A DNA stretch of 62,765 nucleotides from an uncultured Clostridium sp. (lineage in GTDB: Bacteria > Bacillota > Clostridia > TANB77 > CAG-508): NCBI GenBank assembly GCA_946545015.1, contig CAMNMV010000002.1, positions 1-62,765 on the forward strand. The letters are read 5' to 3'. The translations under genes were made by a program, and so were the position numbers. The first letter of the stretch is position 1; each line of letters begins with the position of its first letter. Below the pieces are notes generated by a model. That model ran no database searches. It saw only the letters and a list, made by a program, of their open reading frames with translations, and was not told the DNA's origin. Positions 15,039-48,929 of this stretch are shown piece by piece.

Positions 15039-15045
15039 TGTTAGA

Positions 15046-15913: not shown

Positions 15914-16063
15914 CACCTCATAAGTTTTATTATTAATTATATGTGAAAACGTAATAAATGTTTCAAAAAATATAAAAAAATATGAAAAAATACGATATTT
16001 AATAAAATAAAAATAATATAAAACCTGTTTTACATAAAAAGTTAATAAATTTTTCCAAAAGTG

Positions 16064-16092
16064 TTGAAAAATGACTAAAAACAGTGTATAAT
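16064..16092 (+). promoter_or_regulatory. Consensus sigma-A promoter upstream of giant gene A1
   Basis: TTGAAA, 17 nt, TATAAT with an extended TGn. It predicts a ~180-nt 5' leader. A second weaker candidate (TTGACT, 16 nt, TATTAT) lies near 16216. Confidence 0.55.
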
Positions 16093-16276
16093 ATAAGTTA
16101 GGGTCAGTATGCAAATTGTGTGTAATATAAATGACATAAAAAATTAAACAAAATGTCAAAAAAACGGGAGAAATACTTCCGTAAAAGCATACAGTAGCAT
16201 CAAAAAAAGTATATTGACTTCTTTATAAAAAAATATATTATTATATTAAGTAATAAATTTTAAGGAGGAAAAATTT

Positions 16277-19200
16277 ATGGAAGGAAAATTATTACGAAAA
16301 CTAATTGCGTTTGTTTTAATACTATGTTTAACAGCAACTAATTTTATTTTTGCTGCAGTAAACACAGTATATGCTATAAGCGCATCATCAGAACTTGAAG
16401 GAGGAAATATTGTTTTTGAAGCATATTTTAAACAAGACGAAACAAAAGTTATAGACAAAACAGCATATGTTTCAGAAGGAGCTGATTTATATATCAACTT
16501 AGCAATCAAAGCTGGTAAATTACAAAATGCTAGTATAAAGATTGACAATGCCAATTTCAAGATAGAAAAAGATAAAGTTGATAGCAAATATGTTAAGGGT
16601 ATTAACACAGATACAAATGAAATTTTATTGAATGAAATAGGATATAGTGATGGACAAGCTGGAAGTGTAGAGATAAAACTACCAGTTAAATTTGAGGAGG
16701 CACAAAGAATTGACCTTTCTTATTTCTCAATGGAAAATAGTATAACCCTTTCAGGACATTATATAAATTCCTCTGAAAACGGAAAAGATATTAAAAGTGA
16801 TCCTATAAAAACAAGATTAACATGGAGTGAAAGTAGTATAAGTTACAATTGGGTTCCTACTGTAGAAAAAATAGTTTCTGCTGATAACAAAACTATTGTA
16901 CAAGTAAGCATAAATTCTATTTTAGATAAATTATACTTACCAAAAGAATCTGAAACTGTAACAATAAATGTTCCAAAAGTAGGAAATGTAACACCAAGCT
17001 ATACAGTATTAGTAAATGGAGAAAAATTAGATATTAGTAAAATAAATGATGATTTTGCAAATCAAAAAATATCATTTACAAATAATTTCGTAGATGGTAA
17101 TAGTATTTTATGGGATAAATCAGGAGATACATATAAAGTGATTTATGTATATGATAATACTGATTATTTAGAAAAACCATTAGAATTTAAAACACAAGTA
17201 ACAACAAAAGTATATAATAGAGAGGCAAAAACAAGTAATGAAATGAAAATGGCTTCAAATAAGCCACAAGGAACTATAGCATCAGTTACAGCTACTTCAT
17301 TATCAAATGAAGTATATAAAGGTTATATGTATGCTAATTCAGCAGAAACATTATATACAGAAAAATATGATTTAGAATTATCATATACAGATACAGTTGC
17401 AACATTTAAATTTGCTGAAGATAATTTTACAACTGAATCTCAAGAAAGAAAAATAACAAATGGAAAAACAGTTTATAAAGAATTAAAAATTAATAAAGCA
17501 AATTTAGTAAATGTATTAGGAACAACAGGAAGTTTAAAAATTGTAGATAAAAATATAATTGTAAATTCAAATACACAAGCTGATAAAGATGGAAATATCG
17601 TTATTAAAACAGATGATGCACATATTTTAAAATTAGACTTAATATCAGCTGAAAATGAAGGAACGATTAAAATATTTGCAACAAAAGCAATTCAAGGAAA
17701 TGCAGGTTATGATAAAGAAACATTAAAATCGATAAATGCCATAGAAACAACAGTAAAGGCATCTACAGATTTAGATCAAGAAGTTTCTACAGCAACAGCT
17801 AGAACAGAATTAAAAGAAACAACAACTGAAGCAACATTAGTTATGAATAATAACAATATATTATCAACAACAACAGCAAATGACATTGAATTTTTAGCAA
17901 CATTAAAAACAGGTACTATGGATACAGACTTGCTTAAAGCACCAACATTAAAATTAATATTACCTGAAGATGTAGATCAAGTTACAATTAAATCAGTTTC
18001 AGCATTATATGCAGAAGAAAAATTAAATGTAGCAGATCAACAAGTTGTTGAAGAAGAAGGAAGAAAAGTAATATTAGTAAAATTAGATGGTGAACAATTA
18101 AGTTATGACAACAAATTTATTGAAGGTATTAAAGTTACAATTAATACAGAAATAACATTAAAAGAAGGAACAACATCTAAAGATGATGTTATTACAATGA
18201 AATATACAAACGAGAATAGCACAGAAAAAGAATTTGAAACACCTATAAAAGTATCAATTCAAGCACCATATGGATTAATGACAACAGCTACAGCAAATGC
18301 TGAATTTGAAGGAAAAACTGCAGATGAAACAATTTCAGCACAAGCTATAAACAATTATGGTAAAGTAATAGAAAATTTATCATTTATTGGAAATATGCCA
18401 ACTGTAGAAAAATCTAAAGAAGATTTTGAAAATTCAATTAAAGATAGCTTTAAAGCAACAATTGGAGAAACAGTAGTTGATGCAAATTCTATAACAATAA
18501 AATATTCTAAAGATGGAAAAGAATGGACAGATGATATAGAAGATGCAAAACAATATAAAATAGTACTTGGTGAAAATACAAAATTAAATGCAACAGAAAA
18601 ATTTGAAGTTGCTTATACAATAGAAGTATCACAAGTAATAACAGGACATAAAATAGCTTATACACTTGATGGTATGGAAAAAGTTGATGAATTAAAAGAA
18701 AAAGTAACTGTAAAAGGATTAGAAATACCAGATTCTGAACCAGATCCAGACCCAACACCAGTAGAACCAGTAGTAAATGAAGATGGACTTTCAGTTACAA
18801 TGACAGCAGCATCAGCAAATAAAACAATTACCAAAGATGATGAATTAACAGCTGGTCAAGTAATAAGATATTCATATGTAATTAAAAATACTTCAGAAAA
18901 TGCAATTGAAAATGTAAAATTTGAAGCAGAACATACAAATACAAATGTATTTGAATATAAAACAGATAAACAAACAAATACAATAAAACCAGATGAAGAA
19001 ATTAGCTTTACATTTGAAAAAGAAGCAGATGGAAAATCAACTGTTGAAAAACAAATTGGAACTTTAGAAGCAGGAAAAGAAATAAAACTTACATATCAAG
19101 CAAGAGTTAAAGAAAATGCAAATAAAGTTGAATCAACAGTAGTAGTTACAGGAAAAGATGTAGAAGAAATCAAAATAGAATCTGCAAACGACGTAAAATC

Positions 19201-21070
19201 AGCAGCATTAAAACTTACACTTTCAAATAATATTTCAAATGAAGAAGGAATAGAAGCTGGTAAAGTATTTGCAAATACATTAAGTGTTAAAAATACTTCT
19301 AATGGAAAATTAGAAAATATAACAGTAAATATGGCGATTCCAGAAGGATTCGAAGTATTTGAAATATATGAAATTGGAAATAGTAAAAACTTTACTATTA
19401 TAAGAAAAGATAATACTGCAGTTACATTTAATATAAATGAACTAGCAGCTGGTGCAACAAAAGATATGGTTGTATCATTAAAAACAGTAGAAACAAGTAA
19501 AACAACAAAAGCATTAAAATATTCAGCAACAGTTAATCAACAAACATATTATTCTAATGAAGTAAAAGTTGGAATAAGAGAAAAAGTTGAATCAAAAATA
19601 GAAGCAACTCAAACAGCAAATATTGATGAAGAAGTAGTAGAGACAGGAGATAAATTAAACTATACATTTAAAATTAAAAATACTTCTGAATGTAAAGATA
19701 CAATTACATTTAAAGATACAGTACCAAAAGGAGCTGTTATCAAAAATGTATACTATACAAAAAATGATGAACAAGTAAAAATAGAAAAAGTAACAAACAA
19801 TATGATTTTAGCAGTAATTGAAATAGAACCAGGAGAAGAAATAGACTTAGTTGTAGAAACAGAAATTGATGAATCAAAAACAGGTTCAGAAGAAATAACA
19901 AATTATGCAACAATATCTGGTGAATTATTACCACAAGAAGTAAAAACAAGTTCAATTACATATAAACTAAAAAATAATATTAAACCAGTAAAACCAAATG
20001 ATCCGGATGACCCAGATGATCCAGATGTACCAACAATACCAGGTGAAAAAGATTCTAAATTTACAATTTCTGGTACAGCTTGGATAGATGCAAATAAAGA
20101 TGGTATTAGAGATGAAAAAGAAAAAGTGCTACCAGGAATTAAAGTATCACTTGCTAATACTGAAGAAGGATTTGTTAAAGATTCTAAAGGAAATAAAATC
20201 GAATCTGTAACAGATGCTAAAGGACAATATAAATTTACAGAAATACCAAAAGGTAAATATATTGTAGTATTTGCTTATGACAATGTTAAATATAGAAATA
20301 CAGAATATAGAGCAAAAGCTGCAACAGAAAAAACAAATTCAGATATCATAACAAGTAAAATAGCTCAAGAAGATGGAATTAAATATGGATTAACAGATAC
20401 ATTAGAAATAAGTAAAGAAAGTCTTGAAAATATAGATGCTGGATTTATTGAAAACGAAATATTTGATTTAAGTTTAAATAAATCAATTACTAAAGTAACA
20501 GTACAAAATTCAACTGGAACACAAGTAAAACAATATAATAAAGAACAATTAGCAAAACTTGAAATTGACAGCAAAACATTAGCAGGATCTACAGTACTTG
20601 TAGAATATACAATAGAAGTTAAAAACGAAGGTGAAATTGCAGGTTATGCAAATGAATTAGTAGATTATATGCCAAGAGACTTAACATTTAATTCAGAAAT
20701 AAACAAAGATTGGTATAAATCAACAGATGGAAATCTACATTCAACAGCATTATCTAAAGAATTAATTGAACCAGGACAAACTGTAGCAGTTACATTAACA
20801 TTAGTTAAAACAATGACTGAAGCAAATACTGGTTTAACATCAAATAAAGCAGAAATTGCAAAATCAAGCAATGATTACTTAATACCAGATAAAGATTCAA
20901 AAGCTGGAAATACAGCACAAGGAGAAGACGATATGAGTACAGCAGAATTAATTGTATCAATTAGAACTGGTGTAGGATATACAATAGGAGTTATAACAAC
21001 AATGGTTGTTATAGCCACTGCAGGAACAATAGTCTTCATAAAGAAGAGAAAGGAGGCAAGCCATGAGTAA
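16277..21070 (+). CDS. Giant surface protein, A-type (module 1): DUF11-like repeats, SdrD-B-like unit, C-terminal SIRTG + TM + KKRKE
   Basis: Contains a signal peptide (LILCLTATNFIFAAVNTVYA) and DUF11-like units (GQVIRYSYVIKNTSENAIENV, GDKLNYTFKIKNTSE). PDPDP and DPDDPDDPD linkers precede ISGTAWIDANKDGIRD...GKYIVVF. The C-terminus is a TM anchor. Confidence 0.85.
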   Translation: MEGKLLRKLIAFVLILCLTATNFIFAAVNTVYAISASSELEGGNIVFEAYFKQDETKVIDKTAYVSEGADLYINLAIKAGKLQNASIKIDNANFKIEKDKVDSKYVKGINTDTNEILLNEIGYSDGQAGSVEIKLPVKFEEAQRIDLSYFSMENSITLSGHYINSSENGKDIKSDPIKTRLTWSESSISYNWVPTVEKIVSADNKTIVQVSINSILDKLYLPKESETVTINVPKVGNVTPSYTVLVNGEKLDISKINDDFANQKISFTNNFVDGNSILWDKSGDTYKVIYVYDNTDYLEKPLEFKTQVTTKVYNREAKTSNEMKMASNKPQGTIASVTATSLSNEVYKGYMYANSAETLYTEKYDLELSYTDTVATFKFAEDNFTTESQERKITNGKTVYKELKINKANLVNVLGTTGSLKIVDKNIIVNSNTQADKDGNIVIKTDDAHILKLDLISAENEGTIKIFATKAIQGNAGYDKETLKSINAIETTVKASTDLDQEVSTATARTELKETTTEATLVMNNNNILSTTTANDIEFLATLKTGTMDTDLLKAPTLKLILPEDVDQVTIKSVSALYAEEKLNVADQQVVEEEGRKVILVKLDGEQLSYDNKFIEGIKVTINTEITLKEGTTSKDDVITMKYTNENSTEKEFETPIKVSIQAPYGLMTTATANAEFEGKTADETISAQAINNYGKVIENLSFIGNMPTVEKSKEDFENSIKDSFKATIGETVVDANSITIKYSKDGKEWTDDIEDAKQYKIVLGENTKLNATEKFEVAYTIEVSQVITGHKIAYTLDGMEKVDELKEKVTVKGLEIPDSEPDPDPTPVEPVVNEDGLSVTMTAASANKTITKDDELTAGQVIRYSYVIKNTSENAIENVKFEAEHTNTNVFEYKTDKQTNTIKPDEEISFTFEKEADGKSTVEKQIGTLEAGKEIKLTYQARVKENANKVESTVVVTGKDVEEIKIESANDVKSAALKLTLSNNISNEEGIEAGKVFANTLSVKNTSNGKLENITVNMAIPEGFEVFEIYEIGNSKNFTIIRKDNTAVTFNINELAAGATKDMVVSLKTVETSKTTKALKYSATVNQQTYYSNEVKVGIREKVESKIEATQTANIDEEVVETGDKLNYTFKIKNTSECKDTITFKDTVPKGAVIKNVYYTKNDEQVKIEKVTNNMILAVIEIEPGEEIDLVVETEIDESKTGSEEITNYATISGELLPQEVKTSSITYKLKNNIKPVKPNDPDDPDDPDVPTIPGEKDSKFTISGTAWIDANKDGIRDEKEKVLPGIKVSLANTEEGFVKDSKGNKIESVTDAKGQYKFTEIPKGKYIVVFAYDNVKYRNTEYRAKAATEKTNSDIITSKIAQEDGIKYGLTDTLEISKESLENIDAGFIENEIFDLSLNKSITKVTVQNSTGTQVKQYNKEQLAKLEIDSKTLAGSTVLVEYTIEVKNEGEIAGYANELVDYMPRDLTFNSEINKDWYKSTDGNLHSTALSKELIEPGQTVAVTLTLVKTMTEANTGLTSNKAEIAKSSNDYLIPDKDSKAGNTAQGEDDMSTAELIVSIRTGVGYTIGVITTMVVIATAGTIVFIKKRKEASHE
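20957..21067 (+). other. A1 C-terminal sorting-signal-like tripartite tail
   Basis: SIRTG, then a 23-aa hydrophobic segment, then KKRKEASHE. Confidence 0.5.
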
Positions 21071-24000
21071 GATAGATATATTTAAAAGTATAAAAAATCT
21101 AACTATAGTAGGTATCATACTTGTATTAATAGTAGGTTTACTATCAAGTATGACAACAGCTTCAACAGTTAATGAAGCTGGAACAGTAGGTGACCTTATT
21201 AATTGTACTTATGATGATTCATGGTATGAATTTGACCCTTCTTCAGAAGTTGGAAGAGGTGTTACTGCAGGAACTAACATTCCTACAGATAAACCAGGTG
21301 GATATTGTGTTGACCCACATACATATTATGCAGGAACATATAAAGTAGTAAATATCATAGATATTAATAATAATACAACAGCAAATACTGTAAAAGTATA
21401 TGGTGAAGGTGGATTCGAGAAAGAATATTCTTTCTCAAATCCAAATGTTAGACCATACTTAATGTTAGCATATTTAGCTGATAAAGGTAGAAATGAAGCT
21501 GGAGTATATGGAAATTATATGGCAAACTCATATAAAGTAGCTATGAGTGCAATATTCTTAAATACAACATATAATAATCAAATGAGAAATGCAGGATTAT
21601 CTAGTTATTTAGTACCAGTTTCATATGGTTATGGATCAAGTTCAGCTAAATTACAAGAAGCAATTGTAGAAGCTGAAAAGATGTCAAAACAAGGAAGTAT
21701 GACAGCTGGAAACATAACATATAATCCAACACAAGAAGAAAAAGACAATGTATCAGTAATTCCTTCTGGAGATGGAAAATACTTTGTAGGTCCATATAGA
21801 TTAGGTATAACTGGAGATTGTACTATAGAAGATATAACAATAAATGGTTCAATACATGCAACAGGAATGACAACAGACTTAGAACATGTAAAAACATTAG
21901 ATAATATTGCAGATAACCAAGAATTCTATATTGTAATAAATGAAGAAGTTGAAGAATTTAGTAAAATTAAAGTTAAAGGAAGCGAAACAGTTAGCCAATT
22001 AAGATCAAGATTCTTAATCGTTAGTGGTGGTGCTTCACAAAACTTCTTTATATATAAAGCAGATAGTACACCTGCAAAACCAGAAGTTGAATTAGAAGTT
22101 CCTAAATATGGAACAATTCAAATCTTGAAAAAAGATAGTATTAAAGATAGTAATTTAAAACTTGAAAATATTGGATTCATGGTTTGGAGCGTAAATAAAC
22201 AAGCATATATAATTGAAAACAAAGAAGGTAAAATTGAATATGTAGATTTCAAAACAGCAAAAGCAAATGAATTTAAAACTGATGCTGAAGGTAAAACAAA
22301 AGTTATTAAAAATTTACCTGTAGGTAGATATAAAATTTACGAAACATCTATACCAGATGAATTGAAAATCTATTATGAATTACCAGAAATTGAAATGCCT
22401 GAAAAAGGTAACAAAGAAAAAGTAAAAACTAATGGAAAATTAGTAAGTAACGAAGAAGACAAAAAAGATTATTTTGATATAACAAGTGGTGCAGTAGTAC
22501 CAGTTATAGCAACAAATATAAGAGACTTTACAACATTAGTATTAGAAAAAATTGATAAAGATACAAGTCTACCAGTACCTGGAATAGGATTCAAATTATT
22601 CAGTACAATTAAAGATAAAGAAGGATGGGTTGTTGTAAATGATAAAAATGAAGTAACTGGAACAACAACTGTATTTGATGAAGCAACAGAATTTGTAACA
22701 GGTGAAACTGGTCTTACAGCAAAAATAAATAGAGTACCAGTTGGTGACTATTTAGTATATGAAACAAATTTAGGTTCATATGAAGATGTATATGAAGAAT
22801 TAAAACCTATAAGAATTGCTGGTGGAAATACTGGTGGATTAGGTTTATATAAAGGAACAGCACAAGTTGTAGCTAATGAAAATAATGAATTTAAATTTAC
22901 AGCTAAAAACAAACAAGTTAATATAAATATATCAGGGAAAGTTTGGGAAGATGTTCCAGAACAAAGAAAAAATGATAATGTTCTAAACAATTTATATGAC
23001 CAAGATAGAGACAGATTAATAAATGGAATTACTGTTAAATTAATTGATAGAACAACAGGCGAAGTAATTAAGGAAACAGTAACTAAAGACGGTGGAAAAT
23101 ATAGATTTGAAAAAGTAAAATATATAGAAGAACAAGAAGATGGAACAGATAAAAACTTATTGGAAAATTACTATGTAGAATTTACATATGATGGAGTTAC
23201 ATATCAAAATGTTGTAACACCAGAAAATGAAAAAGATTTAACAAGAACATCAAAAGCATCTGAAAAAGCTAGACAAGCATTTAATGATATATTTACAGAA
23301 CTTACAGGTGAAGGACAAATATTAAATGGAGTTAAATTAACTTATACTAAAGAAGGAAATAATGTATACTCAAATAATATTTGTGATAGAAGAACTAAGA
23401 TTGATGATGAAAATAGATTAGTAAATCTTTCAACATTAGGTGATTTCACAATAACAGCTGTAACAGATGAAAATTACTTAAATAAAGCATATGCAAAATT
23501 AGCAGCATCAACAACAACAGGTACAGAACCAGTTAAAGAAATTACAGATGTTGACTTAGGATTATATCCAAGATCACAATCAGCAGTAATGGTTGTAAAA
23601 GATGTTCATAGTGCAAAACTTTCAATAAATGGATTTAATCATATTTATACATATGGTAAGAAATCTCAAGAATTCTATGAAAAAAGTGCTGAAGACTTCA
23701 ATGTAGGAGTATCATTCAAGAGAAATATGTTATTAAATGGAATGAACCCATACTTAACTCCAGTATATAGATCAGATTATAGATATGAATCTGATGATAA
23801 GAGTAAAGAATTAAAAGTATCTGTAGTATACAAAATCACATTAATAAATAATAGTGCAAATAGATCATTAGTAACAAAAATAAATAAAATAGTAGATTCA
23901 CATGATATTAGATTTACAAATATGGAAGTTGGAACAAAATATGACGAAGCAACAGGTACAATTAGTGATAACTTAGAAGTTAGAGAGTTACCAGCATTAC

Positions 24001-25727
24001 AAAGATTAGGTAGTCCAACTACTAAATATGCAAAAGCAGAAATAAAAACAGATATGGAAATTCCTAGAACAGCTGAAGGAAATTCAAAAGAAATATATGT
24101 AAAATTTGATTTATCAAAAGAACAAATTGGATCAATTCTTGAAAATGGTGAAATCTTAGACAATGTTGTAGAAGTTTCATCATACACAGTAAAACAAGAT
24201 GGAAAATTATATGCATCATTTGACGAACACTCAATACCAAATAATGCTAATCCAGAACTACCAGCTGAATTTGAAGATGATACAGATAATGCACCAGGAT
24301 TAAAATTAGATCCAAAAGATGACAGAACAATGTCAGGTGTTGTATTTGAAGATAATGCAATTTCAGAAGGTGCTGGAAGTGTAAGAAAAGGTAATGGAGC
24401 ATATGATGAAGGTGAAACAACAGTTTCAGACGTAGCAGTAAAACTTATTGAAACTGACAAAGAAGGAAATGTTAAAGAAGACGGAAAAACATATGATGCA
24501 ACAGGAAAAACAACTGCAGATGGTAAATTCACGGTATCTGGATATGTACCAGGATATTATAAATTAATGTATGTATGGGGTAAAAATTCTGAAGGTAAAT
24601 ATGACGTAAATGATTACAAAGGAACAATTTATATCCCAAGAGATACAAGCAAGATGGATTGGTATAAAAATGATAACAGATATTCTGATGCAATGGACAA
24701 TTATGATTTAAGACTTGCAATTGACAGTGGAGATACATCAGTATATAGTGATTTAACAAAAATGGAATCTTCAACAGAAACTTTCGGTATAGGTATAGAA
24801 TATGGTGCTGGAACACCAGGTGATAACATCATAACAATATCTGAAGGAGATAAATTCGTAAGATGTGATGTTTCAACAATGGATTTCGGTATTATAGAAA
24901 GAGCTAGACAAGCATTAAGAATAGACAAAAAAGTTAATTCAGTTAAAGTAACAACACCAGATGGTTCAACATTAGTAGATGCAATTGTAAATGATGAAGG
25001 AAAACTTGAAGGAGCTGCTGGACAAGAATTAAAATATATAACAGGTGGAAGGGATCTTGGATTCTATAAAGTTGAAATGGATGATGATTTAATACAAGAT
25101 TCAAAAGCTAATGTAGGTTATAATATCATAATTACAAATATAAGTGAAATTGATTATGACTCAAAAGAATATTACTTATATGGTGAAGAAAAAGGTAATA
25201 TAATCACATTACAAGCAACTAAGATATTTGATTATCTAAAAGGTGCAGAACTTGACCCTAATAAAGAAGATGACAAATGGGAAATAGTTGATTTAGATAG
25301 AGTAAGAGAAATGAATTCAGCAGTAGTAAAAGATAGAACAGTTATGGAATACTTAAAAGATAATCTAACAAGAGAAATAAGTCCATTAGACGCTACAACA
25401 TCTGAAACAATCTATGTTTTAAAACCATTAACATTAAGTGGTGAAATTGCTATAGATAATAATGCAGAAATTACTAATATAGTAATTGGTGGAACACCTG
25501 TAGATGATGAAGGAAATGCAACAGGACCATCAACAAAATTCAAAACAGCAAGAAAACCAGACTTAGCAAATAGTACATTATTTGCAGTAGCAGAAACAGT
25601 TACAGTAACAAAACCTACTGGTGAAAACAGAGATTATACAGTTATAATAATTAGTAGTATAGCAGCAATTGCAGTATTAGGAGCAGGAGTTATTGTAATA
25701 AAGAAAAAAGTTTTAAATAATAAATAA
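21063..25727 (+). CDS. Giant surface protein, B-type (module 1): SpaA/Cna-B-like units, SdrD-B-like unit, C-terminal KPTGEN sorting signal
   Basis: The ATG overlaps the A1 stop (ATGAGTAA), with aaggagg 6 nt upstream. The protein has a signal anchor and prealbumin-fold-like units (LPVGRYKIYETSIPDE, VPVGDYLVYETN). Other landmarks are SGKVWEDVPEQRKNDN and FGIIERARQ. Confidence 0.85.
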   Translation: MSKIDIFKSIKNLTIVGIILVLIVGLLSSMTTASTVNEAGTVGDLINCTYDDSWYEFDPSSEVGRGVTAGTNIPTDKPGGYCVDPHTYYAGTYKVVNIIDINNNTTANTVKVYGEGGFEKEYSFSNPNVRPYLMLAYLADKGRNEAGVYGNYMANSYKVAMSAIFLNTTYNNQMRNAGLSSYLVPVSYGYGSSSAKLQEAIVEAEKMSKQGSMTAGNITYNPTQEEKDNVSVIPSGDGKYFVGPYRLGITGDCTIEDITINGSIHATGMTTDLEHVKTLDNIADNQEFYIVINEEVEEFSKIKVKGSETVSQLRSRFLIVSGGASQNFFIYKADSTPAKPEVELEVPKYGTIQILKKDSIKDSNLKLENIGFMVWSVNKQAYIIENKEGKIEYVDFKTAKANEFKTDAEGKTKVIKNLPVGRYKIYETSIPDELKIYYELPEIEMPEKGNKEKVKTNGKLVSNEEDKKDYFDITSGAVVPVIATNIRDFTTLVLEKIDKDTSLPVPGIGFKLFSTIKDKEGWVVVNDKNEVTGTTTVFDEATEFVTGETGLTAKINRVPVGDYLVYETNLGSYEDVYEELKPIRIAGGNTGGLGLYKGTAQVVANENNEFKFTAKNKQVNINISGKVWEDVPEQRKNDNVLNNLYDQDRDRLINGITVKLIDRTTGEVIKETVTKDGGKYRFEKVKYIEEQEDGTDKNLLENYYVEFTYDGVTYQNVVTPENEKDLTRTSKASEKARQAFNDIFTELTGEGQILNGVKLTYTKEGNNVYSNNICDRRTKIDDENRLVNLSTLGDFTITAVTDENYLNKAYAKLAASTTTGTEPVKEITDVDLGLYPRSQSAVMVVKDVHSAKLSINGFNHIYTYGKKSQEFYEKSAEDFNVGVSFKRNMLLNGMNPYLTPVYRSDYRYESDDKSKELKVSVVYKITLINNSANRSLVTKINKIVDSHDIRFTNMEVGTKYDEATGTISDNLEVRELPALQRLGSPTTKYAKAEIKTDMEIPRTAEGNSKEIYVKFDLSKEQIGSILENGEILDNVVEVSSYTVKQDGKLYASFDEHSIPNNANPELPAEFEDDTDNAPGLKLDPKDDRTMSGVVFEDNAISEGAGSVRKGNGAYDEGETTVSDVAVKLIETDKEGNVKEDGKTYDATGKTTADGKFTVSGYVPGYYKLMYVWGKNSEGKYDVNDYKGTIYIPRDTSKMDWYKNDNRYSDAMDNYDLRLAIDSGDTSVYSDLTKMESSTETFGIGIEYGAGTPGDNIITISEGDKFVRCDVSTMDFGIIERARQALRIDKKVNSVKVTTPDGSTLVDAIVNDEGKLEGAAGQELKYITGGRDLGFYKVEMDDDLIQDSKANVGYNIIITNISEIDYDSKEYYLYGEEKGNIITLQATKIFDYLKGAELDPNKEDDKWEIVDLDRVREMNSAVVKDRTVMEYLKDNLTREISPLDATTSETIYVLKPLTLSGEIAIDNNAEITNIVIGGTPVDDEGNATGPSTKFKTARKPDLANSTLFAVAETVTVTKPTGENRDYTVIIISSIAAIAVLGAGVIVIKKKVLNNK
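25611..25724 (+). other. B1 LPXTG-like sorting signal
   Basis: KPTGEN, then a hydrophobic helix, then KKKVLNNK. Confidence 0.55.
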
Positions 25728-25775
25728 ACTTAGAATTAATAGATTAGACTTATAATAAATTTTATATAGAACTTT

Positions 25776-25820
25776 CATAAAGAGCAGGTTATACCTGCTC
25801 TTTATGTTTTGTTGTTTTTT
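25776..25820 (+). terminator. Rho-independent terminator of module 1
   Basis: cataaagagcagg / cctgctctttatg 13-bp stem with a 5-nt loop, followed by a T-rich run. Confidence 0.85.
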
Positions 25821-25840
25821 TACTAAAAAGATAAAATATT

Positions 25841-25854
25841 CTTAGGGAAACAAG
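25841..25854 (+). promoter_or_regulatory. CTTAGGGAAATAAG motif copy (one mismatch)
   Basis: Reads cttagggaaacaag, directly after the module 1 terminator. Confidence 0.5.
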
Positions 25855-25899
25855 TAATTAAGGAAAAATATATGTGAAAATATTAAAAAATAAATCTTA

Positions 25900-25919
25900 A
25901 TATTACAAAAATGTAATGT
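25900..25919. promoter_or_regulatory. Palindromic candidate operator in the module 2 leader
   Basis: ATTACA aaaa TGTAAT is a perfect 6-4-6 palindrome. It aligns with ATATTAC-N6-GTAATAT in the module 3 leader. Confidence 0.45.
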
Positions 25920-25944
25920 AAATTTAAAGTATAGTTAGTAAAAA

Positions 25945-25986
25945 GTGTTTCAAATACTTTCCGTAAAGGTATTTGGGACACTTTTT
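25945..25986 (+). promoter_or_regulatory. Leader hairpin presenting TTCCGTAAAG in its loop, followed by T5
   Basis: gtgtttcaaatac / gtatttgggacac 13-bp stem (two G-U pairs) with an 11-nt loop tttccgtaaag, followed by ttttt. Confidence 0.45.
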
Positions 25987-26093
25987 GTAATATTTACTTA
26001 TATATATAAAAAGCTATATTGAATTAATTTATATATAATAATAAGATAAAATTAAGTAAAAATGTCAAAAGAAAAAGTAGGAGGAACCAACAA

Positions 26094-29000
26094 ATGAAAG
26101 GGAAAATTTTAAAAGTATTATTGGTGTTAATGATTATTGCAAGTATGACATTAATCAATTTTTTACACACAGGAATGTTAATTGCATATGCTGCAGGGGA
26201 AAATGCTGAAGAAAATTCAGTAGAATTTAATGCAACAATAAATACTGAAAATGATTATGAAGGAAAATTAAATATTGGTCAAACAGGAAATCTTTATATT
26301 AACTTAAAAGTTAGTAAAGGTTCATTAAATGATGCTAAAATACAGTTGAAAAACTCAAACTTCAAGATGGGAAAAGCAGATAGTAAATATGTAACTGTAA
26401 ATGACAGTACAAAAACTATTGAATTTAATGCAAATGTCCAATATGGAAATAATATAAAAGTTAAAGTTCCAATTACTTTTGAACAACAATCAATGATTGA
26501 TGAAAATTATTTTAATAGAGATACAACAGTTGAATTAGCTGGTACATATGTAGAAGGCGAGAACAGTTCAAATCTAAATATACAAAAAAACATTAAATTA
26601 GGTTGGGAAGCCAAAGCTGAAACAACTTTATCCACACAAATTGAAAAATATGTGGAAATCAGTGAAGGAAAATACTTAATTGAGCAAAAAGTAACAGCTA
26701 CAACTGTAAATAATATTTTACCAAAACAATCTGAAAAAGTTGAAATAACATATGGTGGAGAAAATGATAAATTTCCAAGTGAAATTGTAGTTTTGAAAAA
26801 TGGAAAAAAATTAGATGGAAGTAAAGTAACAAAGGATGAAACAAATAGAAAAATAGTAATAACAACAATGAATGATGTATCTACAGGAAAAGTATTATGG
26901 GATGAAGGAAAAGATATATACAAAGTGATTTATATACTTGAAGAAGAACAACCAAAAACAAGTATTTTATTAAATACTTTAGTTAGCACAAAATTTTATA
27001 ATAGCGAAGAATTAGTAGAAAAAGCAGATAATAAAAATGATAAAGCACAAGAATTAAGAATAAAAGGAGAAATAATAACAACAGAAGCTGAAGGAACAAA
27101 AGAACAATATAAAGGTTATATGTATTATGCAAAAGCCAATGAAACATTATATAGCCAAAAATATAGCATTGAAGTTTCAAATGTTGCAAATGAACAAGTA
27201 ATAAACTTTGAACAAAATGGTGAAGATTTTATTAGAGGAGACGGTAAAAAGCTAGAAACAAATAATTCTACATATTTCAAAAATATATCATTAAGCAAAG
27301 AAAATATAAATAATGTTTTAGGAAATAATGGACACATTGATTTAATATGTGATGGAGTAACATATAGAATTAATGCTAATCAAGAAGCAAATGAAAATGG
27401 ATATATCGTATTTGGAATAGATGAAAATAATTCTAGATTTAGTGAATTAAAATTAACGACAAGTAAAGTAATCAATGAAGGTGTACTAGATATATTAGTT
27501 GATAAAGTAGTAGCTGGAAATACTTCATATAGCAAAGAAGAATTAAAACAAATTGCTAAAATCGAAACAAATGTAAAAGTGCAAGATCAAGAAGTAAGAA
27601 CACAAACACAATTGTTAGATACAGTAGAACCATCTGCTAAATTAACAATTGAAAATGATGTAATTTCCACAATTAATCAAGAAAATAATAATGTAAAAAT
27701 GTATGTAACATTAAATACTTCTTCAAACAAATATGATTTATACAAAAATCCACAAATAGTAGTAACATTACCAAGAGAAGTAGAAGAATTTAATTTTGTG
27801 CATAATGAATTATATGCAGAAGGATTTAGATTAACAAATGAACCTAAATTACAAGTAAATGCTGATGGAACAAAATGTATAATGTTTACTTTTGAGGGTG
27901 AACAAGCAAACTATGGAAACAATGCAGTTGAAGGATTAGTAATTGAAATAAGTGGTAATATTAGACTAAATAAATTGACTCCAAAAATGACTAAACAAAT
28001 TAGTATGACATATTCAAACGAAAATAAAAATTACCAAACATATGAGAAAAAAGCAGATATAAAAATTGTTTCAAAAGAAGGAATATTAACATATACACAA
28101 GTAAAAGGTTATAACGAAGCTGGAGAGACTATTGAAACAATGAGTAATGAACTAGCTGAAGGTACTCTTGATATGGATGCTGAATCTAGAAATGTAAGAG
28201 TAAATATGGCAGTTATAAATAATTACGACAAAAATGTAACTAATGCATTTATATTAGGAAAATTAAAAACAACATATGAAGGAGAAATAACTTCTCCTAT
28301 ACAAATAAGTGGTTTAGAAGGTGCAAAAGTACTTTATAGTACAAATGTTGAAGAAGAAGTAAATAGTAAAAATTGGACAGAAAATTACGAAGGTGCTAAA
28401 GCTTATAAAATTATACTTCCAAATGGACAATTAAAAAGTGGACAAATTATGGGATTTGCTTATAACTTTAATGTGCCAGAAAACTTAGAATATAACGAAA
28501 TAGCAAATGCGGGATATCAATTTAATTATAAATATGATGATATAAATAATAAAATTTCTTCAGTATTCAAATTAGCAACAGAAGAAAAGACATTAACAAA
28601 TCAATTAAAAAGAATAGCAAGAAATAGTAATAAAACATCTAATATTTATAGTGTTAGTGAAGGGGTAAAATTAGATGTTAAAGCTATATCTGCATTAAAT
28701 GAATTAAATGATGGTGATACAGTAAAAGAAGGACAAACAATTAGATATGAAGTTACAGTTAAAAACAATTCACAAGAAGATATTGAAAACTTAAAATTAA
28801 CAGCAAGACATACAAATGCGATATTCTTTGTTGAAAAGAAAGAAGAAAATGTATTTGGCGTAACAAATGGTATACCATATAATACATATATTGATGAAGA
28901 TGAATCAGTAGAAAAATTAGAATTTGAATTAGAAAGATTAGGTGCAGGAGAAGAAAAAACATTTGAATATGAATTTTCTGTAAAAGAAATAGAAGGAGAA

Positions 29001-34100: not shown

Positions 34101-37100
34101 ACAAGCACCATATGGATATAATATTAGTACAAGTAGTTCAAAAACTATAACTGTACAAAAAGAAGAAGCAAATAAAGGTTGGGAATTAAAAGATTTAACA
34201 AAAGCATTGGCAACTATGATATGGAATACTAAATCTAGTGATTCATCAACAATAAATGTTGTAGACATAGTTGATGCAGTTCAAGGCAATTCTCTTAATT
34301 CAGCAGTTATAGCAAATGAACTAATGAGTAAACTAGGAAAATCAAAAGTTACGACATATGATGAAATATATGATGTTATAGAATATGTAATAGAAGAAAA
34401 TCAAAGTTATGTTGTAGTAACAGTTGATAGTAGTGAAAAATATTTGTATAAGAGACACCAAAACTCTGCAATTAGCATGATTGATGCAATTCAAGCAATT
34501 AAACAAAATAAGAAAATTGGCGGTACATCAGTTAGTGATGGAAAAAAATATTTAAAAAATTATATAGCACAAGTTTATAATAAATTTACAGGAAAGAATA
34601 GAGATACTGAAAGTTTATATAATTTAAAATATTATAGTATAGCTTGTGGTTCAAGTGCTGAAACTTTTGCGAACAGTAAAGATGTAAAATTGAAAGTTAA
34701 GAAGACAGATTACAAGACAGGAAAAGGAATTAATGGAATTAAGTTTGCAATACAAAATACAGAAACTGGCAAATATCTAAAGAAACAAAATGATGGAACA
34801 TTTACATTTAGTGATACTCAATATTTATTTACAACTGCTAAAGTTGAAGGTGATGATGGAATTATATTATTAGAAGATGTTCCAGAAGCTACATATAAAG
34901 TAATAGAAATAAATACAGGTAATACAGGATATGAATTACCAGAATATGGAGATGATCGCTCATTATTAGTAAGCAGAGATTCTAAAACTAAAAAAATAAC
35001 TTCTATGTATGAATCAATACATATAGAAAATGGTATAAAAGAATTTCCTATGGAAAATGTTAAACCTAAAACTAGAAAATATCCACCAGTAACAGTTACG
35101 AAACAATTAAAAGTATCTGGAAAAGTATGGAAAGATATACCTACAGAACTTAAAGATAGAAATGTTAGAGATGATATTTATGGATCAAATGATCAATTAT
35201 TTGCAGGGGTTCCGGTTTCACTTGTACAAGATAGTAAAACAGTTGCAACTACTGCAACAAAAGCAAATGGCACATATACTTTGAATTTTGATTTAACAGA
35301 TGTAATTAAAAAAGTAAATAATGATAAAGAGGTAAAGAAGGCTAAAGAAGAAGCTGATAACTTCGAAGCAAGGGATTATACAGATGAAATAGCAAGATAT
35401 AATGAATACATTGAATACTATAAAGCTGATCTTAAAGCTGTTTCACAATATCCAAATCCAGAGTTAGTAAGACGTAGAACTATAATTGATAATGAAGCAA
35501 TATCAAAATATACAAATAGAATAAATGAATTAATTACAAGAATTCATGATGAGGATACATATCATGAAAATCTATGTAAAGTATATGAAGCTTTATTTAA
35601 TGAAAAATATAATCAATATTTATTAGAAGAACTAGGAAAATCTAAGATTATATTTAGATATAATGGTTTAGATTATACAAATGTTTTATTAAATAAAGGA
35701 AGTATTGATGAAGGTACATCATCTCTTGCAGCAGAAATACCAGACGAGAGAACTGAATTGAATACCGATTTTGGTACAGTTACAGGGGATTCTGAACAAA
35801 AAATTAGAGATAAGAAAATTGAATATGAGTTTTCTGAAGAATATGTAAATGTTAAAGAAAATGATACAATGAAGATAAATGCATATACAGCTGCAGCTAC
35901 ATTGAAAAATAGATATAATTCATTAAGTAATAAATCAAATAATGTAACTGAAATTACTAATATAAATTTAGGTGTATATGTAAGATCTAGACCAGACTTA
36001 TCACTTAGAAAAGATGTATATAGTGCTGAAATAACAATGGACGGAAAAGCATATACATATGTATATGGTAAAAAAGATGGGGAAGAATTAACAACAATTG
36101 GTGCTGCATTCGAAAGAAACATGATGTTAAGAGAAGATGATAAGTATCTTGCACCAGTATATAGAGCAGATGTTCAAGATGCAGGACATAATAATTTTAC
36201 TATGAAAGTAACATATAGAATTGCTGTTATAAATAATAGCCCTGTATTATATAATAAAGTTACAAAATTAGAAGATTATTATTCATCAAGATATAAGATT
36301 GATGCAGTTTATACAGGAACTAAAACTCAAAAAGGTGCAAAAATCAAAAATTTAACAGATTCTACTAATACTGTTGAAAAACATGTTACAATAGATGGAT
36401 TAAATTTAAGAATACCAAATTCAAAATCACCTGAAGGTAATGCTAAATATATATATGTAGATTTCTATGTAAATCCTATAAGCTTGGATATGTTTGATAC
36501 AGATTTAGAACTACATAATACAGCTGAAATATCAAATTATTCAACATATAGTAATGATGGTTATACTGAATTTTATGGTGGATTTGATATCGACTCTGTG
36601 CCAAATAACTATAAGAAAACATACAAAAATCACGATGCTAGAAGAGAAGATGATGTTGATGGCGCACCTGGATTAAAAATTACAGAAGCCACTCCAAGAA
36701 AGTTACAAGGAACAGTATTTTTAGATGAAGATATTGATGGAATAACAGGAACAGGTAAAGAAAGATTAGGTGACGGTATATTTAATTCCTCTAAAGAACA
36801 AGGAATAGCAGGTGCTGAAGTTATATTAGAGGATACAAAAAATGGAAATAAATTTACTGTTCGTACAGATGATGCAGGAAAATATACATTTAGTGATTTT
36901 CCTGTAGGAACATATACTTTAACATATAAATGGGGAAATAAAACATATAATCCATTGTATTATAAATCAACAATTATCAACAAAGGATTTAATCCAACTG
37001 ATAAAATAAACTGGTATCAAAATATAGATCCTAATAAAGCTTATTCAGTAGCTATTGATGACGAAGAAACAAGAATGAATATTGATAAGAATAGTACTAC

Positions 37101-38280
37101 TAGATATAAAGATATGCTACAAAATAGTGCTGAAGCAGTAGAAACTATGACTTCAAAGGCAATTCAAGATGTTGAAGTAGAAATGTTGTTGAGAGATAAA
37201 AATAAAGTAAAATATGAAGTAAAAAATATTAATTTTGGTATAATTGAAAGACCAAGACAATCTATGAAAATAACTAAAAATATATCACACATAAAAGTAA
37301 TGGATGATTATGGAACTGTTATTGATGAATCAGATATTGAAAATGGAAAATTAACAGCAGAGAAAATGAACTTTACAGTTTATATTCCAAAAGGACAAGC
37401 ACTAAATCCATATGGACAAGTAAAAACTGAATTAGACAAAGAATATTTACCAGCTAAAGTTGAAGCAACTTATGAAATAAAAGTTGAAAACAGAAGTGAA
37501 CAAGATTACTTCAAAAAAAATGAAAGTGGATTATCAGAATATTATAAATATGGAACAAAAGGTGTTGCAGGCGAATCACCTGTAAAATTACAAGCGACAG
37601 GTGTAATGGATTATGCAAGCTCAGCATTTGTTATAAGTGATATTAAAGAGGATAACGGAAATGTAATATCAGCTGATGATTATTTGATTGAAGATAAAGA
37701 TTATTATAAGAAAGTTGCTGAAACTACAGGAGTAGAATACCAAGATAATAAAACATATACAACAGTTATTGAAAAAGCTTATCAAAAACTTATAGAAACA
37801 ATTGGTAAAGATTCTTCAAAGATTTTAACATATGAATGGGCAACAGATGAACAAACAATAAGAGGAATATTCTCACAATGGTGTGATGAAAAAATTGATA
37901 CTGAAGAAAAAGCAAGAACAAATAAATTAAGTCAAAATAAAATCTTAGAATTAAAATGCTTAGAAGGTGCAGAGTTAGCTGCAGGTTATGCTAAAGCAGT
38001 TACAATCAAAGGTTCAATACCTGTAACTTCATTAAATAGTGATGTATTATTACAAAACCAAGCTGAAATACTTAATATTGATAAAACATCAACATTTGGT
38101 CATAAATCATATGAAACATATACAACATTGTATGATCAAGGTGAAGAAGTTAAAGTAATACCACCTACTGGTGAAAATAAAGATAATTCAGATATGATTA
38201 TAATTGCAATATCATCAATAGTTGGATTATTAGTAATAGGAATTGGAATAATATTTATCAGAAAAAAGGTTTTAAGATAA
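31153..38280 (+). CDS. Giant surface protein, B-type (module 2), with three helical inserts between SpaA/Cna-B-like units
   Basis: The ATG overlaps the A2 3' end by 14 nt, with aaggagg 6 nt upstream. Prealbumin-fold-like units include GNYHITEIEKPAGY, GDYSIEEIEAPEGY, YEVVEVQAPYGY and ATYKVIEINTGNTGY. Other landmarks are SGKVWKDIP and FGIIERPRQ. The C-terminus reads PPTGEN + TM + RKKVLR. Confidence 0.85.
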   Translation: MKKNKQDYSIKYKIIFCLIFLIGIILAIVTQVKAGLLTGSYDFTGNGYITEFDFGWAARNDYDKFYNYDSSLDMSSSNLIGKSVYMNVGSFGEWGASIEQNNCFCIGHGTSQAIPGYNQNQPTYRIETIWDTDMDDNTPPGTSDIYIYNNSGTVSSYKNRYIDNNAGYALAKWAVIAKETQGQTYNYQAFYNGQTIGNYLNKVKSMAISPYIKIDDNFGFTEDANMVEYANRLRNYNFAEAKLNEAKGVNKVNGKIYLGPFGINASKDENGKDNISKVVATVNGATTQILGFSSTKGGSLYQAYNQIPCDGSKFYVVINNIEDINGLKFKITITKSIQVIRARTFFFRHGGYTTNGQNLIVYRGDLKLKEDKLELVVTGEEDEEESTGILSIIKEDEYTKELLGGAKFVVQNSKTRKYVKAQKETSSGNANVFKFTGYVNKLDEATKFYTDNGHGIFRLTGLEEGNYHITEIEKPAGYLKEENEVDVYVYSEKKLEEIYNSNNTGYAIKAMLDDNREYPEMYKILNALLGRNYSNNDEIFNAAQTIKAAYNQEKAKKGYDKMTKEEKNIFNINFVTNKFADYNIEYSGLTSIKLKNIKNQNEDTKKKYIENVYEKLINSKIKTGLHYFYSERMIGNASQIIYNKMSGRARVYKVSQDNSIVKLKGAKFKIQTPYLSYLVATKDSNGIYNVTGTNATGTIFETNDNGYFEVRGMEEGGDYSIEEIEAPEGYKFIDTSSKTLYVYSYNRFSNEDNIKRAFKQMFTSVNLNSSKYSSEGYAILKSLLLNDNATDSHLTNENDIDTIVDYVLTNKKNTIVTLLDHNYTINQIMNDVAANAKSGGNNTVLEEYFAQVYSKYSGQKRKRENAYNIMYATKALGYDSNVVVNPLEDQNGNIVIYKTDKKDETKKLSGATFKIEKMRFVTVIGGNNNPVYLKATKKSDGIYDASDTSNLTDEFVTNSNGYIQIKNIPITSSVREIYEVVEVQAPYGYNISTSSSKTITVQKEEANKGWELKDLTKALATMIWNTKSSDSSTINVVDIVDAVQGNSLNSAVIANELMSKLGKSKVTTYDEIYDVIEYVIEENQSYVVVTVDSSEKYLYKRHQNSAISMIDAIQAIKQNKKIGGTSVSDGKKYLKNYIAQVYNKFTGKNRDTESLYNLKYYSIACGSSAETFANSKDVKLKVKKTDYKTGKGINGIKFAIQNTETGKYLKKQNDGTFTFSDTQYLFTTAKVEGDDGIILLEDVPEATYKVIEINTGNTGYELPEYGDDRSLLVSRDSKTKKITSMYESIHIENGIKEFPMENVKPKTRKYPPVTVTKQLKVSGKVWKDIPTELKDRNVRDDIYGSNDQLFAGVPVSLVQDSKTVATTATKANGTYTLNFDLTDVIKKVNNDKEVKKAKEEADNFEARDYTDEIARYNEYIEYYKADLKAVSQYPNPELVRRRTIIDNEAISKYTNRINELITRIHDEDTYHENLCKVYEALFNEKYNQYLLEELGKSKIIFRYNGLDYTNVLLNKGSIDEGTSSLAAEIPDERTELNTDFGTVTGDSEQKIRDKKIEYEFSEEYVNVKENDTMKINAYTAAATLKNRYNSLSNKSNNVTEITNINLGVYVRSRPDLSLRKDVYSAEITMDGKAYTYVYGKKDGEELTTIGAAFERNMMLREDDKYLAPVYRADVQDAGHNNFTMKVTYRIAVINNSPVLYNKVTKLEDYYSSRYKIDAVYTGTKTQKGAKIKNLTDSTNTVEKHVTIDGLNLRIPNSKSPEGNAKYIYVDFYVNPISLDMFDTDLELHNTAEISNYSTYSNDGYTEFYGGFDIDSVPNNYKKTYKNHDARREDDVDGAPGLKITEATPRKLQGTVFLDEDIDGITGTGKERLGDGIFNSSKEQGIAGAEVILEDTKNGNKFTVRTDDAGKYTFSDFPVGTYTLTYKWGNKTYNPLYYKSTIINKGFNPTDKINWYQNIDPNKAYSVAIDDEETRMNIDKNSTTRYKDMLQNSAEAVETMTSKAIQDVEVEMLLRDKNKVKYEVKNINFGIIERPRQSMKITKNISHIKVMDDYGTVIDESDIENGKLTAEKMNFTVYIPKGQALNPYGQVKTELDKEYLPAKVEATYEIKVENRSEQDYFKKNESGLSEYYKYGTKGVAGESPVKLQATGVMDYASSAFVISDIKEDNGNVISADDYLIEDKDYYKKVAETTGVEYQDNKTYTTVIEKAYQKLIETIGKDSSKILTYEWATDEQTIRGIFSQWCDEKIDTEEKARTNKLSQNKILELKCLEGAELAAGYAKAVTIKGSIPVTSLNSDVLLQNQAEILNIDKTSTFGHKSYETYTTLYDQGEEVKVIPPTGENKDNSDMIIIAISSIVGLLVIGIGIIFIRKKVLR
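38161..38277 (+). other. B2 LPXTG-like sorting signal
   Basis: IPPTGEN, then a hydrophobic helix, then RKKVLR. Confidence 0.55.
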
Positions 38281-38285
38281 AATTT

Positions 38286-38321
38286 AAAAGAAAGTAGAAA
38301 TTAAATTCTACTTTCTTTTTT
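38286..38321 (+). terminator. Rho-independent terminator of module 2
   Basis: gaaagtagaa / ttctactttc 10-bp stem (extendable by A-T pairs), followed by tttttt. Confidence 0.8.
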
Positions 38322-38335
38322 CTTAGGGAAATAAG
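38322..38335 (+). promoter_or_regulatory. CTTAGGGAAATAAG motif copy (exact)
   Basis: Exact 14-mer abutting the T-run of the module 2 terminator. Confidence 0.5.
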
Positions 38336-38379
38336 GCAAAAAGAGAAAAATTGAAAAAATTCAGTTTCAAAATTTAGAA

Positions 38380-38399
38380 ATATTACAAAAAAGTAATAT
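38380..38399. promoter_or_regulatory. Palindromic candidate operator in the module 3 leader
   Basis: ATATTAC aaaaaa GTAATAT is a perfect 7-6-7 palindrome. Confidence 0.45.
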
Positions 38400-38571
38400 A
38401 AACTTAAAATAAGATTACAAAAAATTAGAAAAATAGCTTCCGTAAAGGGATTTTGAATGATGCTTGTAATATTTACTATTATAGTAATATAGAGGGGTTG
38501 ATTAATTTTTTTCAAAATAATAATATAAAATCAAGTGTAAATGCTTAAAAAATAAGTAGGAGGAAACAAAA

Positions 38572-47981: not shown

Positions 47982-48026
47982 AACTAGAACTAAATGTGAT
48001 ATAACACAGTTAGTTCTAGTTTTTTA
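47982..48026 (+). terminator. Rho-independent terminator of module 3
   Basis: aactagaacta / tagttctagtt 11-bp stem with an 18-nt loop, followed by ttttt. Confidence 0.75.
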
Positions 48027-48087
48027 TTATGACAAATTATAAAAAAGGCAAAAGATAATAAAAAAATAAATTTAGGAGGAAAAAGAA

Positions 48088-48923: not shown

Positions 48924-48929
48924 ACATCT

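Follow-up and report, generated by a model that had tools for sequence, protein, structure and literature searches.

Tandem A-B cassettes and their conservation

The stretch of DNA analysed here (the window: 62,765 nucleotides of an uncultured Clostridium sp., contig CAMNMV010000002.1 of assembly GCA_946545015.1) carries five very long open reading frames (ORFs) on the plus strand at 16277-47916, which an earlier note, made from the sequence letters, had described as three tandem pairs of giant surface protein genes belonging to two types, A and B. An ORF check of the window returned all five with exactly the coordinates, lengths and strand first noted: A1 (1597 amino acids (aa), 16277-21070), B1 (1554 aa, 21063-25727), A2 (1690 aa, 26094-31166), B2 (2375 aa, 31153-38280) and AB3 (3114 aa, 38572-47916), the last being a fusion of an A part (A3, 38572-42807, aa 1-1412, with neither a basic tail nor a stop codon) and a B part (B3, 42808-47916). 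The GC content of the window is 24-31%, and ORFs of 1500-3100 codons cannot be attributed to chance in DNA of 25-30% GC. All-against-all BLASTP bore out the two families, which strictly alternate in the order A-B, A-B and in-frame A+B: A1 and A2 share 31% identity from end to end, AB3 has ~25% identity to the A family in its first ~1400 residues, and its C-terminal part is 32% identical to B1 and 40% identical to B2. The A proteins group as (A1,A2),A3 and the N-terminal heads of the B proteins as (B1,B2),B3, but the C-terminal 900-1000 aa of B group differently, as (B2,B3),B1, at 40% identity, and these discordant groupings suggest mosaic exchange between neighbouring cassettes.

The translational coupling of A and B that had been proposed from the letters is supported by the sequence. 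A1 and B1 overlap by 8 nt and A2 and B2 by 14 nt, with the AAGGAGG ribosome-binding site of B sitting within the codons for the KKRKE tail of A; these codons, AAG AGA AAG GAG G, double as the Shine-Dalgarno sequence of the overlapping B gene (21040-21070 and 31130-31166), so that the tail would be under dual constraint. In AB3 the junction (residues about 1383-1435) passes in frame from the A3 terminus SISTG (42718-42732, +) through a membrane helix and the basic loop NTKFKIFDKLK to a B-type signal anchor, IFGFVLLLLFITV...TES (loop and anchor at 42799-42888, +), and no ribosome-binding site is evident upstream of the B3 signal anchor. In-frame fusions of an A tail to a B signal also occur in the otherwise unrelated proteins P0143, P0145 and P0154, and since the linking loop is basic in every fusion found the membrane topology would be kept. 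Judged from these sequences, in-frame A-B fusions (AB3, P0143, P0145 and P0154) appear to have arisen independently and repeatedly.

Homologues of A form about 150 clusters, nearly all metagenomic and none functionally named (A1 itself is identical to the 'hypothetical protein' J6I85_08460 of an uncultured Clostridia metagenome-assembled genome), and a search with B1 retrieved 24 clusters. Amongst related loci, A is directly followed by B on the same strand in all 11 A genes with readable downstream sequence (those of the three cassettes of the window, of L007 and L011 with two each, and of L001, L002, L005, L006 and L008), and this adjacency persists at identities to A1 as low as about 27%. 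Where the two genes are not fused, the gap between them ranges from -14 to +19 nt, and cassettes are present in one copy (L001, L006 and L008), two (L007) or three or more (the window and L011). Adjacency in every readable case, together with the recurrent fusions, supports the earlier view that A followed by B forms one conserved unit and not a collection of unrelated adhesins. At L011 10001-13081 (P0170-P0173) there are, in addition, short A-like proteins of ~870 aa in which ISISTG is succeeded by a membrane helix, a basic loop, a second helix and a stop; an 84-aa ORF and then a B-like gene follow, an arrangement that looks like a decayed or rearranged A-B junction.

Each module also has its own leader and a terminator-like hairpin, in agreement with the earlier note. 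The region upstream of module 1 (16100-16276, +) contains TGTAAT-type repeats, the element CTTCCGTAAAAG at 16176-16187, a -35/-10-like pair, TTGACT/TATTAT (16214-16241, +), and the ribosome-binding site AAGGAGG; that of module 2 (25810-26093, +) contains ATATTACAAAAATGTAAT, TTTCCGTAAAGG at 25958-25969, a TTGAAT -35-like hexamer and the ribosome-binding site GTAGGAGG; and that of module 3 (38320-38571, +) contains CTTCCGTAAAGG at 38437-38448. The module 2 and module 3 regions are paralogous, and the order shared by the cassettes, at 16100-16276, 25890-26093 and 38370-38571, is TGTAACAAAAATGTAAT-type repeats, then CTTCCGTAAAGG, then a ATATTGACT -35-like element. Of 11 aligned regions taken from other genomes, 10 have the same architecture 5' of an A gene, the loci showing it besides the window being L001, L005, L006, L007, L008 and L011. 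The CTTCCGTAAAGG element has three matches in the window against 0.15 expected, and is also found 100-200 nt 5' of A genes in L003-L006 and L008. As the conserved elements are located 5' of the -35-like hexamer they look like DNA sites, and the conservation of this architecture would imply that a dedicated regulator is encoded elsewhere. The idea that the leaders contain a known structured RNA was rejected, the only Rfam match being the OLE RNA, which is located elsewhere (see below). The module 2 element is embedded in a long imperfect palindrome (25940-25986). Terminator-like hairpins follow B1 (25776-25806, +; a 14-bp stem then a T run), B2 (38286-38319, +; palindromic, with the T run on the plus strand) and AB3 (approximately 47990-48030, +; AACTAGAACTAA...TTAGTTCTAGTT then TTTTTT), the last of these having been read by eye from the region 47917-48087 and not being listed by the hairpin scan.

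Domains, thioester-like head and anchoring signals

In A1 a signal peptide is followed by an array of immunoglobulin (Ig)-like domains (about aa 35-815), a Pro/Asp linker, CLIPPER/DUF7507 domains, a second Pro/Asp linker, an SdrD_B domain and a terminal CLIPPER-like domain, after which come SIRTG (20957-20971), a membrane helix and the KKRKE tail; the SIRTG of A2 is at 31050-31064 (+). Pfam detected CLIPPER/DUF11, DUF7507 and SdrD_B above threshold in the C-terminal half of A (DUF11 at 31-39 bits against a cut-off of 24.6, and SdrD_B at 43-75 bits in the A proteins and AB3 against a cut-off of 29.7), CLIPPER being known from the stalks of fibrillar adhesins as a CnaA-like domain with an internal isopeptide bond (PMC12617251). 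No Pfam family covers the first 870 residues of A, and a sequence search of A1 against the PDB gave nothing useful. The AlphaFold model of residues 1-870 (predicted local distance difference test score, pLDDT, 86) consists of successive Ig-like beta-sandwiches only, its best PDB matches being PrgB Ig-like domains, integrin legs and macroglobulin domains, and no enzymatic or lectin-like head is apparent in the model or the Pfam scan. The outline of A given in the earlier note, a signal peptide, a long beta-rich N-terminal region, DUF11-like repeats and an SdrD_B unit, thus agrees with both Pfam and AlphaFold, with the beta-rich region now refined to a plain array of Ig-like domains. The length of A homologues is nearly constant, mostly 1575-1700 aa.

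The B proteins begin with a signal anchor and a Cys-containing N-terminal domain and continue with SpaA (CnaB-type) and SdrD_B units, and here too Pfam and the sequences agree with what was first described: SpaA scores are 47 bits in B1 and 122 bits in B2 against a cut-off of 23.1. B1 comprises the signal anchor, a thioester-domain-like head (21168-22112, +; Cys82 inside 21297-21314 and Gln326 inside 22032-22049), SpaA/CnaB domains, SdrD_B, a terminal module, KPTGEN (25611-25628, +), a membrane helix and a KKK tail. In B2 the head (31270-32337, +), with the Cys of FCIG inside 31456-31473 and the Gln of GQNL inside 32215-32232, is followed by five SpaA stretches, SdrD_B, PPTGEN (38161-38178) and a membrane helix. 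B3 has a shortened head (42889-43566, +), in which the Cys, Gly-Pro, Tyr-Tyr and Gln positions are kept and a helical lobe is missing, then a stalk of SpaA-like and SdrD_B units, PPTGEN (47788-47805), a membrane helix and a KKK tail. Searching the PDB with the sequence of B2 gave nothing useful.

Thioester adhesins bind their targets covalently, and are of interest in host colonisation and as protein-ligation tools. The AlphaFold model of B1 residues 1-1200 (pLDDT 81.5) had as its top PDB match in Foldseek 6fwv (E 7.5e-19), a Bacillus anthracis TIE protein with a class II thioester domain and three CnaB domains, and the next distinct structure, SdrD (E 2.3e-9), was some ten orders weaker, as were stalk-only pilins; the alignment to 6fwv spans 651-675 columns for a target of 520 residues, the output not including the aligned residues themselves. 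The B1 head in this model (residues about 36-350) consists of a beta lobe, a helical lobe, a beta-sandwich and a hairpin carrying Gln326, and this order of secondary structure agrees with that of class II thioester domains (PMC6194298). Across 11 diverse heads, B2 included, the invariant residues are Cys82, Tyr93, Gly243-Pro244, Tyr289 and Gln326 (B1 numbering) and nothing else. A profile search for the head in 1.84 billion representative proteins retrieved 141 clusters, in which it always occupies residues ~30-350 of proteins of 1300-2000 aa, and in 112 heads the Cys is kept in 99% and the Gln in 96%, both being among the six positions conserved in >80%.

Three motifs of the family, [YFL]C[VIL][DEQ], xQxA[VI]W and xQN[FLM], correspond to the three published thioester-domain motifs (PMC6194298). 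The Cys motif reads GGYCVD in B1 (Cys82, in model strand 80-82) and FCIG in B2, as expected of a thioester Cys. A thioester Gln is looked for in a weak hydrophobic-Q-hydrophilic-hydrophobic-hydrophobic motif, ~200 residues past the Cys, on a hairpin after a beta-sandwich insert; the corresponding motif here is SQNFF in B1 and GQNLI in B2, with Gln326 placed in the model between strands 310-321 and 328-338, after the beta-sandwich 217-321. The remaining motif is found as xQxA[VI]W in most of the distant members of the family, the B partners in L007 and L008 also having it. On the strength of the model and these motifs B is probably a very divergent TIE-type adhesin with a class II thioester-like head, in which we infer a Cys-Gln thioester bond. 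Two distant B-like proteins, P0143 (L010 442-5538) and P0144, have a type I dockerin domain (PF00404), which suggests that such relatives may attach to cohesin scaffolds.

The terminal motifs of A and B were as first described and are kept in about 65 clusters of A and 78 of B. The consensus of the A tail is N.AEI...D.DS.PGN..GEDD.S.AE.IISI[RK]TG followed by a membrane helix and KKRKE, and across the retrieved homologues the A signal is I[IV][SG][IV][RK]TG, which has no proline and is thus not of the xPxTG form. The B tail reads [TI][IV]TP[PSA]TGE[ND], membrane helix, IKKKVL; TG precedes the membrane helix in 78 of 78 tails, with Pro at position -2 in 60 of them, and LPXTG-like xPxTG signals are present in B2 (IPPTG) and B3 (TPPTG). 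All five ORFs, and the retrieved A and B homologues, combine a signal peptide with a C-terminal hydrophobic segment and basic residues. The two termini had been taken to be different, and this holds for their signals but not for the modules in which the signals lie, since the C-terminal modules of A (last ~216 columns) and B (~290) are homologous in hhalign (probability 99.4%, E 2.4e-21), with SIRTG of A aligned to KPTG of B, and are therefore versions of one module, in which an SdrD_B unit and a terminal CLIPPER-like domain precede the sorting signal. When the C-terminal tails were scanned with NCBIfam, LPXTG_anchor, NPXTG and Loki-CTERM matched below threshold only, so that no named sorting-domain family is assigned, and A1 and B1 did not match TIGR01167 (LPXTG_anchor). 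The sortase SrtB of C. difficile cuts (S/P)PXTG between T and G and does not cleave the proline-less peptide NVQTG (PMC4155245). To judge from its signal, B most likely undergoes the same cut between Thr and Gly, made by a sortase whose gene lies elsewhere, before its linkage to peptidoglycan; for A, given the lack of proline and the uncut NVQTG peptide, retention in the membrane or the need for another enzyme may be envisaged.

A proposed paired surface fibre and its alternatives

We consider it reasonably probable that the three diverged tandem two-gene cassettes encode a co-produced pair of giant surface fibres that serves as one adhesion unit of a Gram-positive lineage of gut or rumen Clostridia. 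At the level of sequence the gene structure, the domains, the homology of the anchors, the adjacency of A and B, the fusions and the upstream architecture all support this. Each cassette would be transcribed from its own promoter, with the CTTCCGTAAAGG element and TGTAA repeats, and A and B would be translated in a coupled manner and in equal amounts, or, in the third copy, as one fused product. Both proteins would be exported by Sec and would consist mainly of Ig-like, CnaA-like (CLIPPER) and CnaB-like (SpaA, SdrD_B) stalks. Stalk domains of these kinds often carry internal isopeptide bonds. The distal head of B could then bind its target covalently through the Cys-Gln thioester, the target being possibly a host structure, plant fibre or another cell, with B linked to the wall by a sortase encoded elsewhere via its LPXTG-type signal. 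A would be a head-less fibre with a fixed length of ~1600 aa that is anchored differently, either retained in the membrane or processed by another enzyme, and that acts with B. The diverged cassettes, together with mosaic segments that vary between strains, may provide a repertoire of surface variants.

Several observations weigh against this picture, some of them against the thioester assignment and others against wall anchoring and the pairing itself. Part of the score of the 6fwv match stems from the CnaB domains; Pfam PF08341 (TED) has no significant match in B1, B2 or AB3, its one match amongst 18 heads being non-significant (E 0.51), if in register with the motifs; and two profile searches of PDB sequences with the B head gave no thioester-domain match. 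The motif TQxx[IV]W is missing from the B1 clade, in which SYKAAM takes its place, and from B3, whose head is moreover shortened and has no helical lobe; this motif, in helix 2, is given as non-essential in thioester domains (PMC6194298). As to anchoring, the B1 signal TKPTG has its Pro off the usual position, and the TIGR01167 scores of A2 (13.9 bits), B2 (15.1) and B3 (14.9) all fall short of the cut-off of 15.9. There is no sortase in the 62.7-kb window or within 10 kb of the related loci searched; within the window, as the earlier note had reported, no ORF of at least 150 aa matches a sortase, regulator, glycosyltransferase or secretion family. The exact AB3 protein is absent from the public collection and no close relative of its junction was found, so the fusion is seen in this assembly only. 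Finally, contact between A and B is something we infer, as are the thioester bond, the processing by sortase, the fate of A and the binding target.

Comparison with described systems places B closest to the TIE proteins (BaTIE 6fwv, SaTIE, EfmTIE86 and TIEpLS20; PMC6194298, PMC8092201), which have class II thioester domains. In common with these, B has a signal peptide, an N-terminal head, a CnaB/SpaA stalk, xPxTG, a membrane helix and a basic tail, its Cys and Gln, the sole universal residues of thioester domains, are near-invariant, and the three motifs are recognisable across the family. Unlike TIE proteins, which it exceeds 3-4 times in length, B also includes CLIPPER-like and SdrD_B units, has a head unseen by sequence models (with the B1 clade lacking TQxx[IV]W and the B3 head reduced), and is always preceded by or fused to A, whereas TIE proteins are encoded by single genes. 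Both A and B resemble the fibrillar adhesins built of CLIPPER (DUF11)/DUF7507 and SdrD_B domains (PMC12617251, PMC9210967) in being long, signal-peptide-bearing and stalk-rich with a C-terminal sorting region, but A differs in having no recognisable adhesive head, an Ig-like start of ~800 aa and a proline-less signal, and in an organisation into cassettes that has not been described for such adhesins. The B tail, in which xP[PSA]TG[E][ND] is followed by a hydrophobic segment and Lys/Arg residues with the customary spacing from the C-terminus, is similar to those of C. difficile SrtB substrates (PMC4155245, PMC4591827), yet its motif opens with Thr, Ile or Val where those substrates have Ser or Pro, the signal of B1 is TKPTG, and that of A is I-S-I-R-T-G.

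It may be asked whether A and B depend on one another at all, for they could be independent adhesins that share an operon and are duplicated together. Each is equipped with a signal peptide, a stalk and a full anchoring signal of its own, and the groupings of the paralogues are not fully congruent, being (A1,A2),A3 for A as opposed to (B2,B3),B1 for the C-terminal half of B. The B head, on the other hand, groups as (B1,B2),B3 and so matches A, and an order and adjacency retained in all 11 readable cases, down to about 27% identity, together with the translational coupling, the near-constant length of A and independent in-frame fusions that keep the membrane topology, make mere co-transcription rather unlikely. 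If it were nevertheless correct, this would be an ordinary, though very large, adhesin locus. At the opposite end, A and B might be obligate partners in one covalent heteromeric fibre formed with no pilus sortase at the locus, either with the Thr of the B TPxTG ligated to A or with an A Lys captured by the thioester head of B, in which case the A signal would be a new class of sorting or retention signal and the whole an unrecognised two-component system, with its own promoter element, of an uncultured order of gut Clostridia; this bolder version of the pairing we regard as clearly unlikely.

Sortase-assembled pili combine a tip adhesin with shaft and base pilins and a class C sortase. The locus is reminiscent of these in its adjacent genes for CnaA/CnaB surface proteins, one with a thioester-like head, and in their differing classes of signal, and differs from them in having giant proteins, no pilin motif and no pilus sortase. 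A minimal pilus, in which the Thr of the B TPxTG would be joined to a Lys of A so that a thioester-tipped B stands on an A base, would fit with the occurrence of thioester proteins such as Cpa as pilus tip adhesins (PMC6194298), with the pilins BcpA, SpaA, SpaD and GBS52 amongst the structural matches of the B stalk, and with the two classes of sorting signal per operon that are typical of tip or shaft versus base pilins. No class C sortase, however, lies in or near any locus searched, a simple pattern test of the five proteins found no YPKN-type pilin motif, in A or elsewhere, and a single E-box-like motif, in B2, and A and B are 5-10 times the size of pilins, so that we hold such an assembly to be very improbable. 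Least probable of all is a structural layer of the envelope, a core and vertically inherited coat or spacer rather than an adhesin: the near-constant A length of about 1600 aa and the recurrence of the same site after mreB-mreC-mreD-PBP2-minC in every syntenic genome seen, the distant L009 included, would be in keeping with it, but very fast evolution, a segment that is mosaic between strains and a variable copy number are not, nor is the reactive-looking B head with its invariant Cys/Gln pair, and domain scans found no SLH, CWB2 or other S-layer anchoring domain.

For the co-produced fibre pair that we favour, the domain types and the concept of the TIE adhesin are already known. What appears to be new, as far as sequences and models can tell, is a small, very divergent and previously unrecognised family of thioester heads, the obligate association of this family with an Ig-array partner that has been fused to it repeatedly and bears a homologous anchor lacking the proline, the tandem arrays of several cassettes at a constant site in the chromosome, and the cassette-specific promoter architecture. 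The literature searched contained no description of paired thioester adhesins in gut Clostridia or of such an A-B pair, in line with the earlier note, whose author did not recognise the arrangement. The B-head family of 141 clusters, missed by current sequence models, would bring uncultured Clostridia of the gut and rumen into the known range of thioester domains; the strict A-B pairing and repeated fusion suggest a mutual dependence of fibres that has not been described for TIE proteins; and the promoter element and the strain-level mosaic segment offer handles on how commensals regulate and vary their surface.

Sequence variation, the chromosomal site and neighbouring genes

Between the window and syntenic genomes the A and B proteins are 24-48% identical and the flanking MreB/C/D, PBP2 and MinC 49-85%, and such fast evolution of A and B is expected for exposed proteins. 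Comparison with L003, another strain of the same species, gave 98.3% identity over 24.8 kb, with 297 of the 424 differences concentrated in a 2-kb stretch of A2 (28500-30500); this variable segment, about aa 1014-1350, contains two CLIPPER-like domains and the acidic linker and has a DNA identity of 79%, and elsewhere the two strains are >99% identical. On this distribution the stretch is a strain-variable surface segment of mosaic or recombined make-up. A paralogue in the window, acting through gene conversion, was rejected as its source, as the window contains no donor, and so was a diversity-generating retroelement, as no reverse transcriptase was found and the differences are unlike adenine-specific changes (the base pattern was not tabulated).

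The locus is nearly always found 3' of mreB-mreC-mreD-PBP2-minC and two small minus-strand ORFs. In the window the upstream flank comprises radC, mreB, mreC, mreD, PBP2 and minC, and the downstream flank a kinase-like gene, a WG-repeat gene and tatD. At the same site in L009, which belongs to a more distant lineage, other giant proteins of 1761, 2576 and 2512 aa are encoded (4460-26109), with CLIPPER, SpaA and SdrD_B domains and TPPTG tails, and on this evidence the site appears to be a conserved island for giant surface proteins. The minC gene (window 14418-16159 region) is not followed by minD and minE, and in their place are two Asn-rich minus-strand ORFs (15046-15417 and about 15389-15907) with no family matches; syntenic loci have small minus-strand ORFs at the same position, likewise with no family matches. 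These two ORFs of the minC-A1 interval were considered as regulators and rejected, being Asn-rich and without family matches. Downstream of AB3, at 48915-49515 (+), lies an OLE RNA of full length (its match to Rfam RF01071 scores 359 bits, the gathering score being 50), followed at 49616-50164 (+) by a membrane ORF of 182 aa with a weak CNNM-like match, which is probably the OLE-associated protein OapA.

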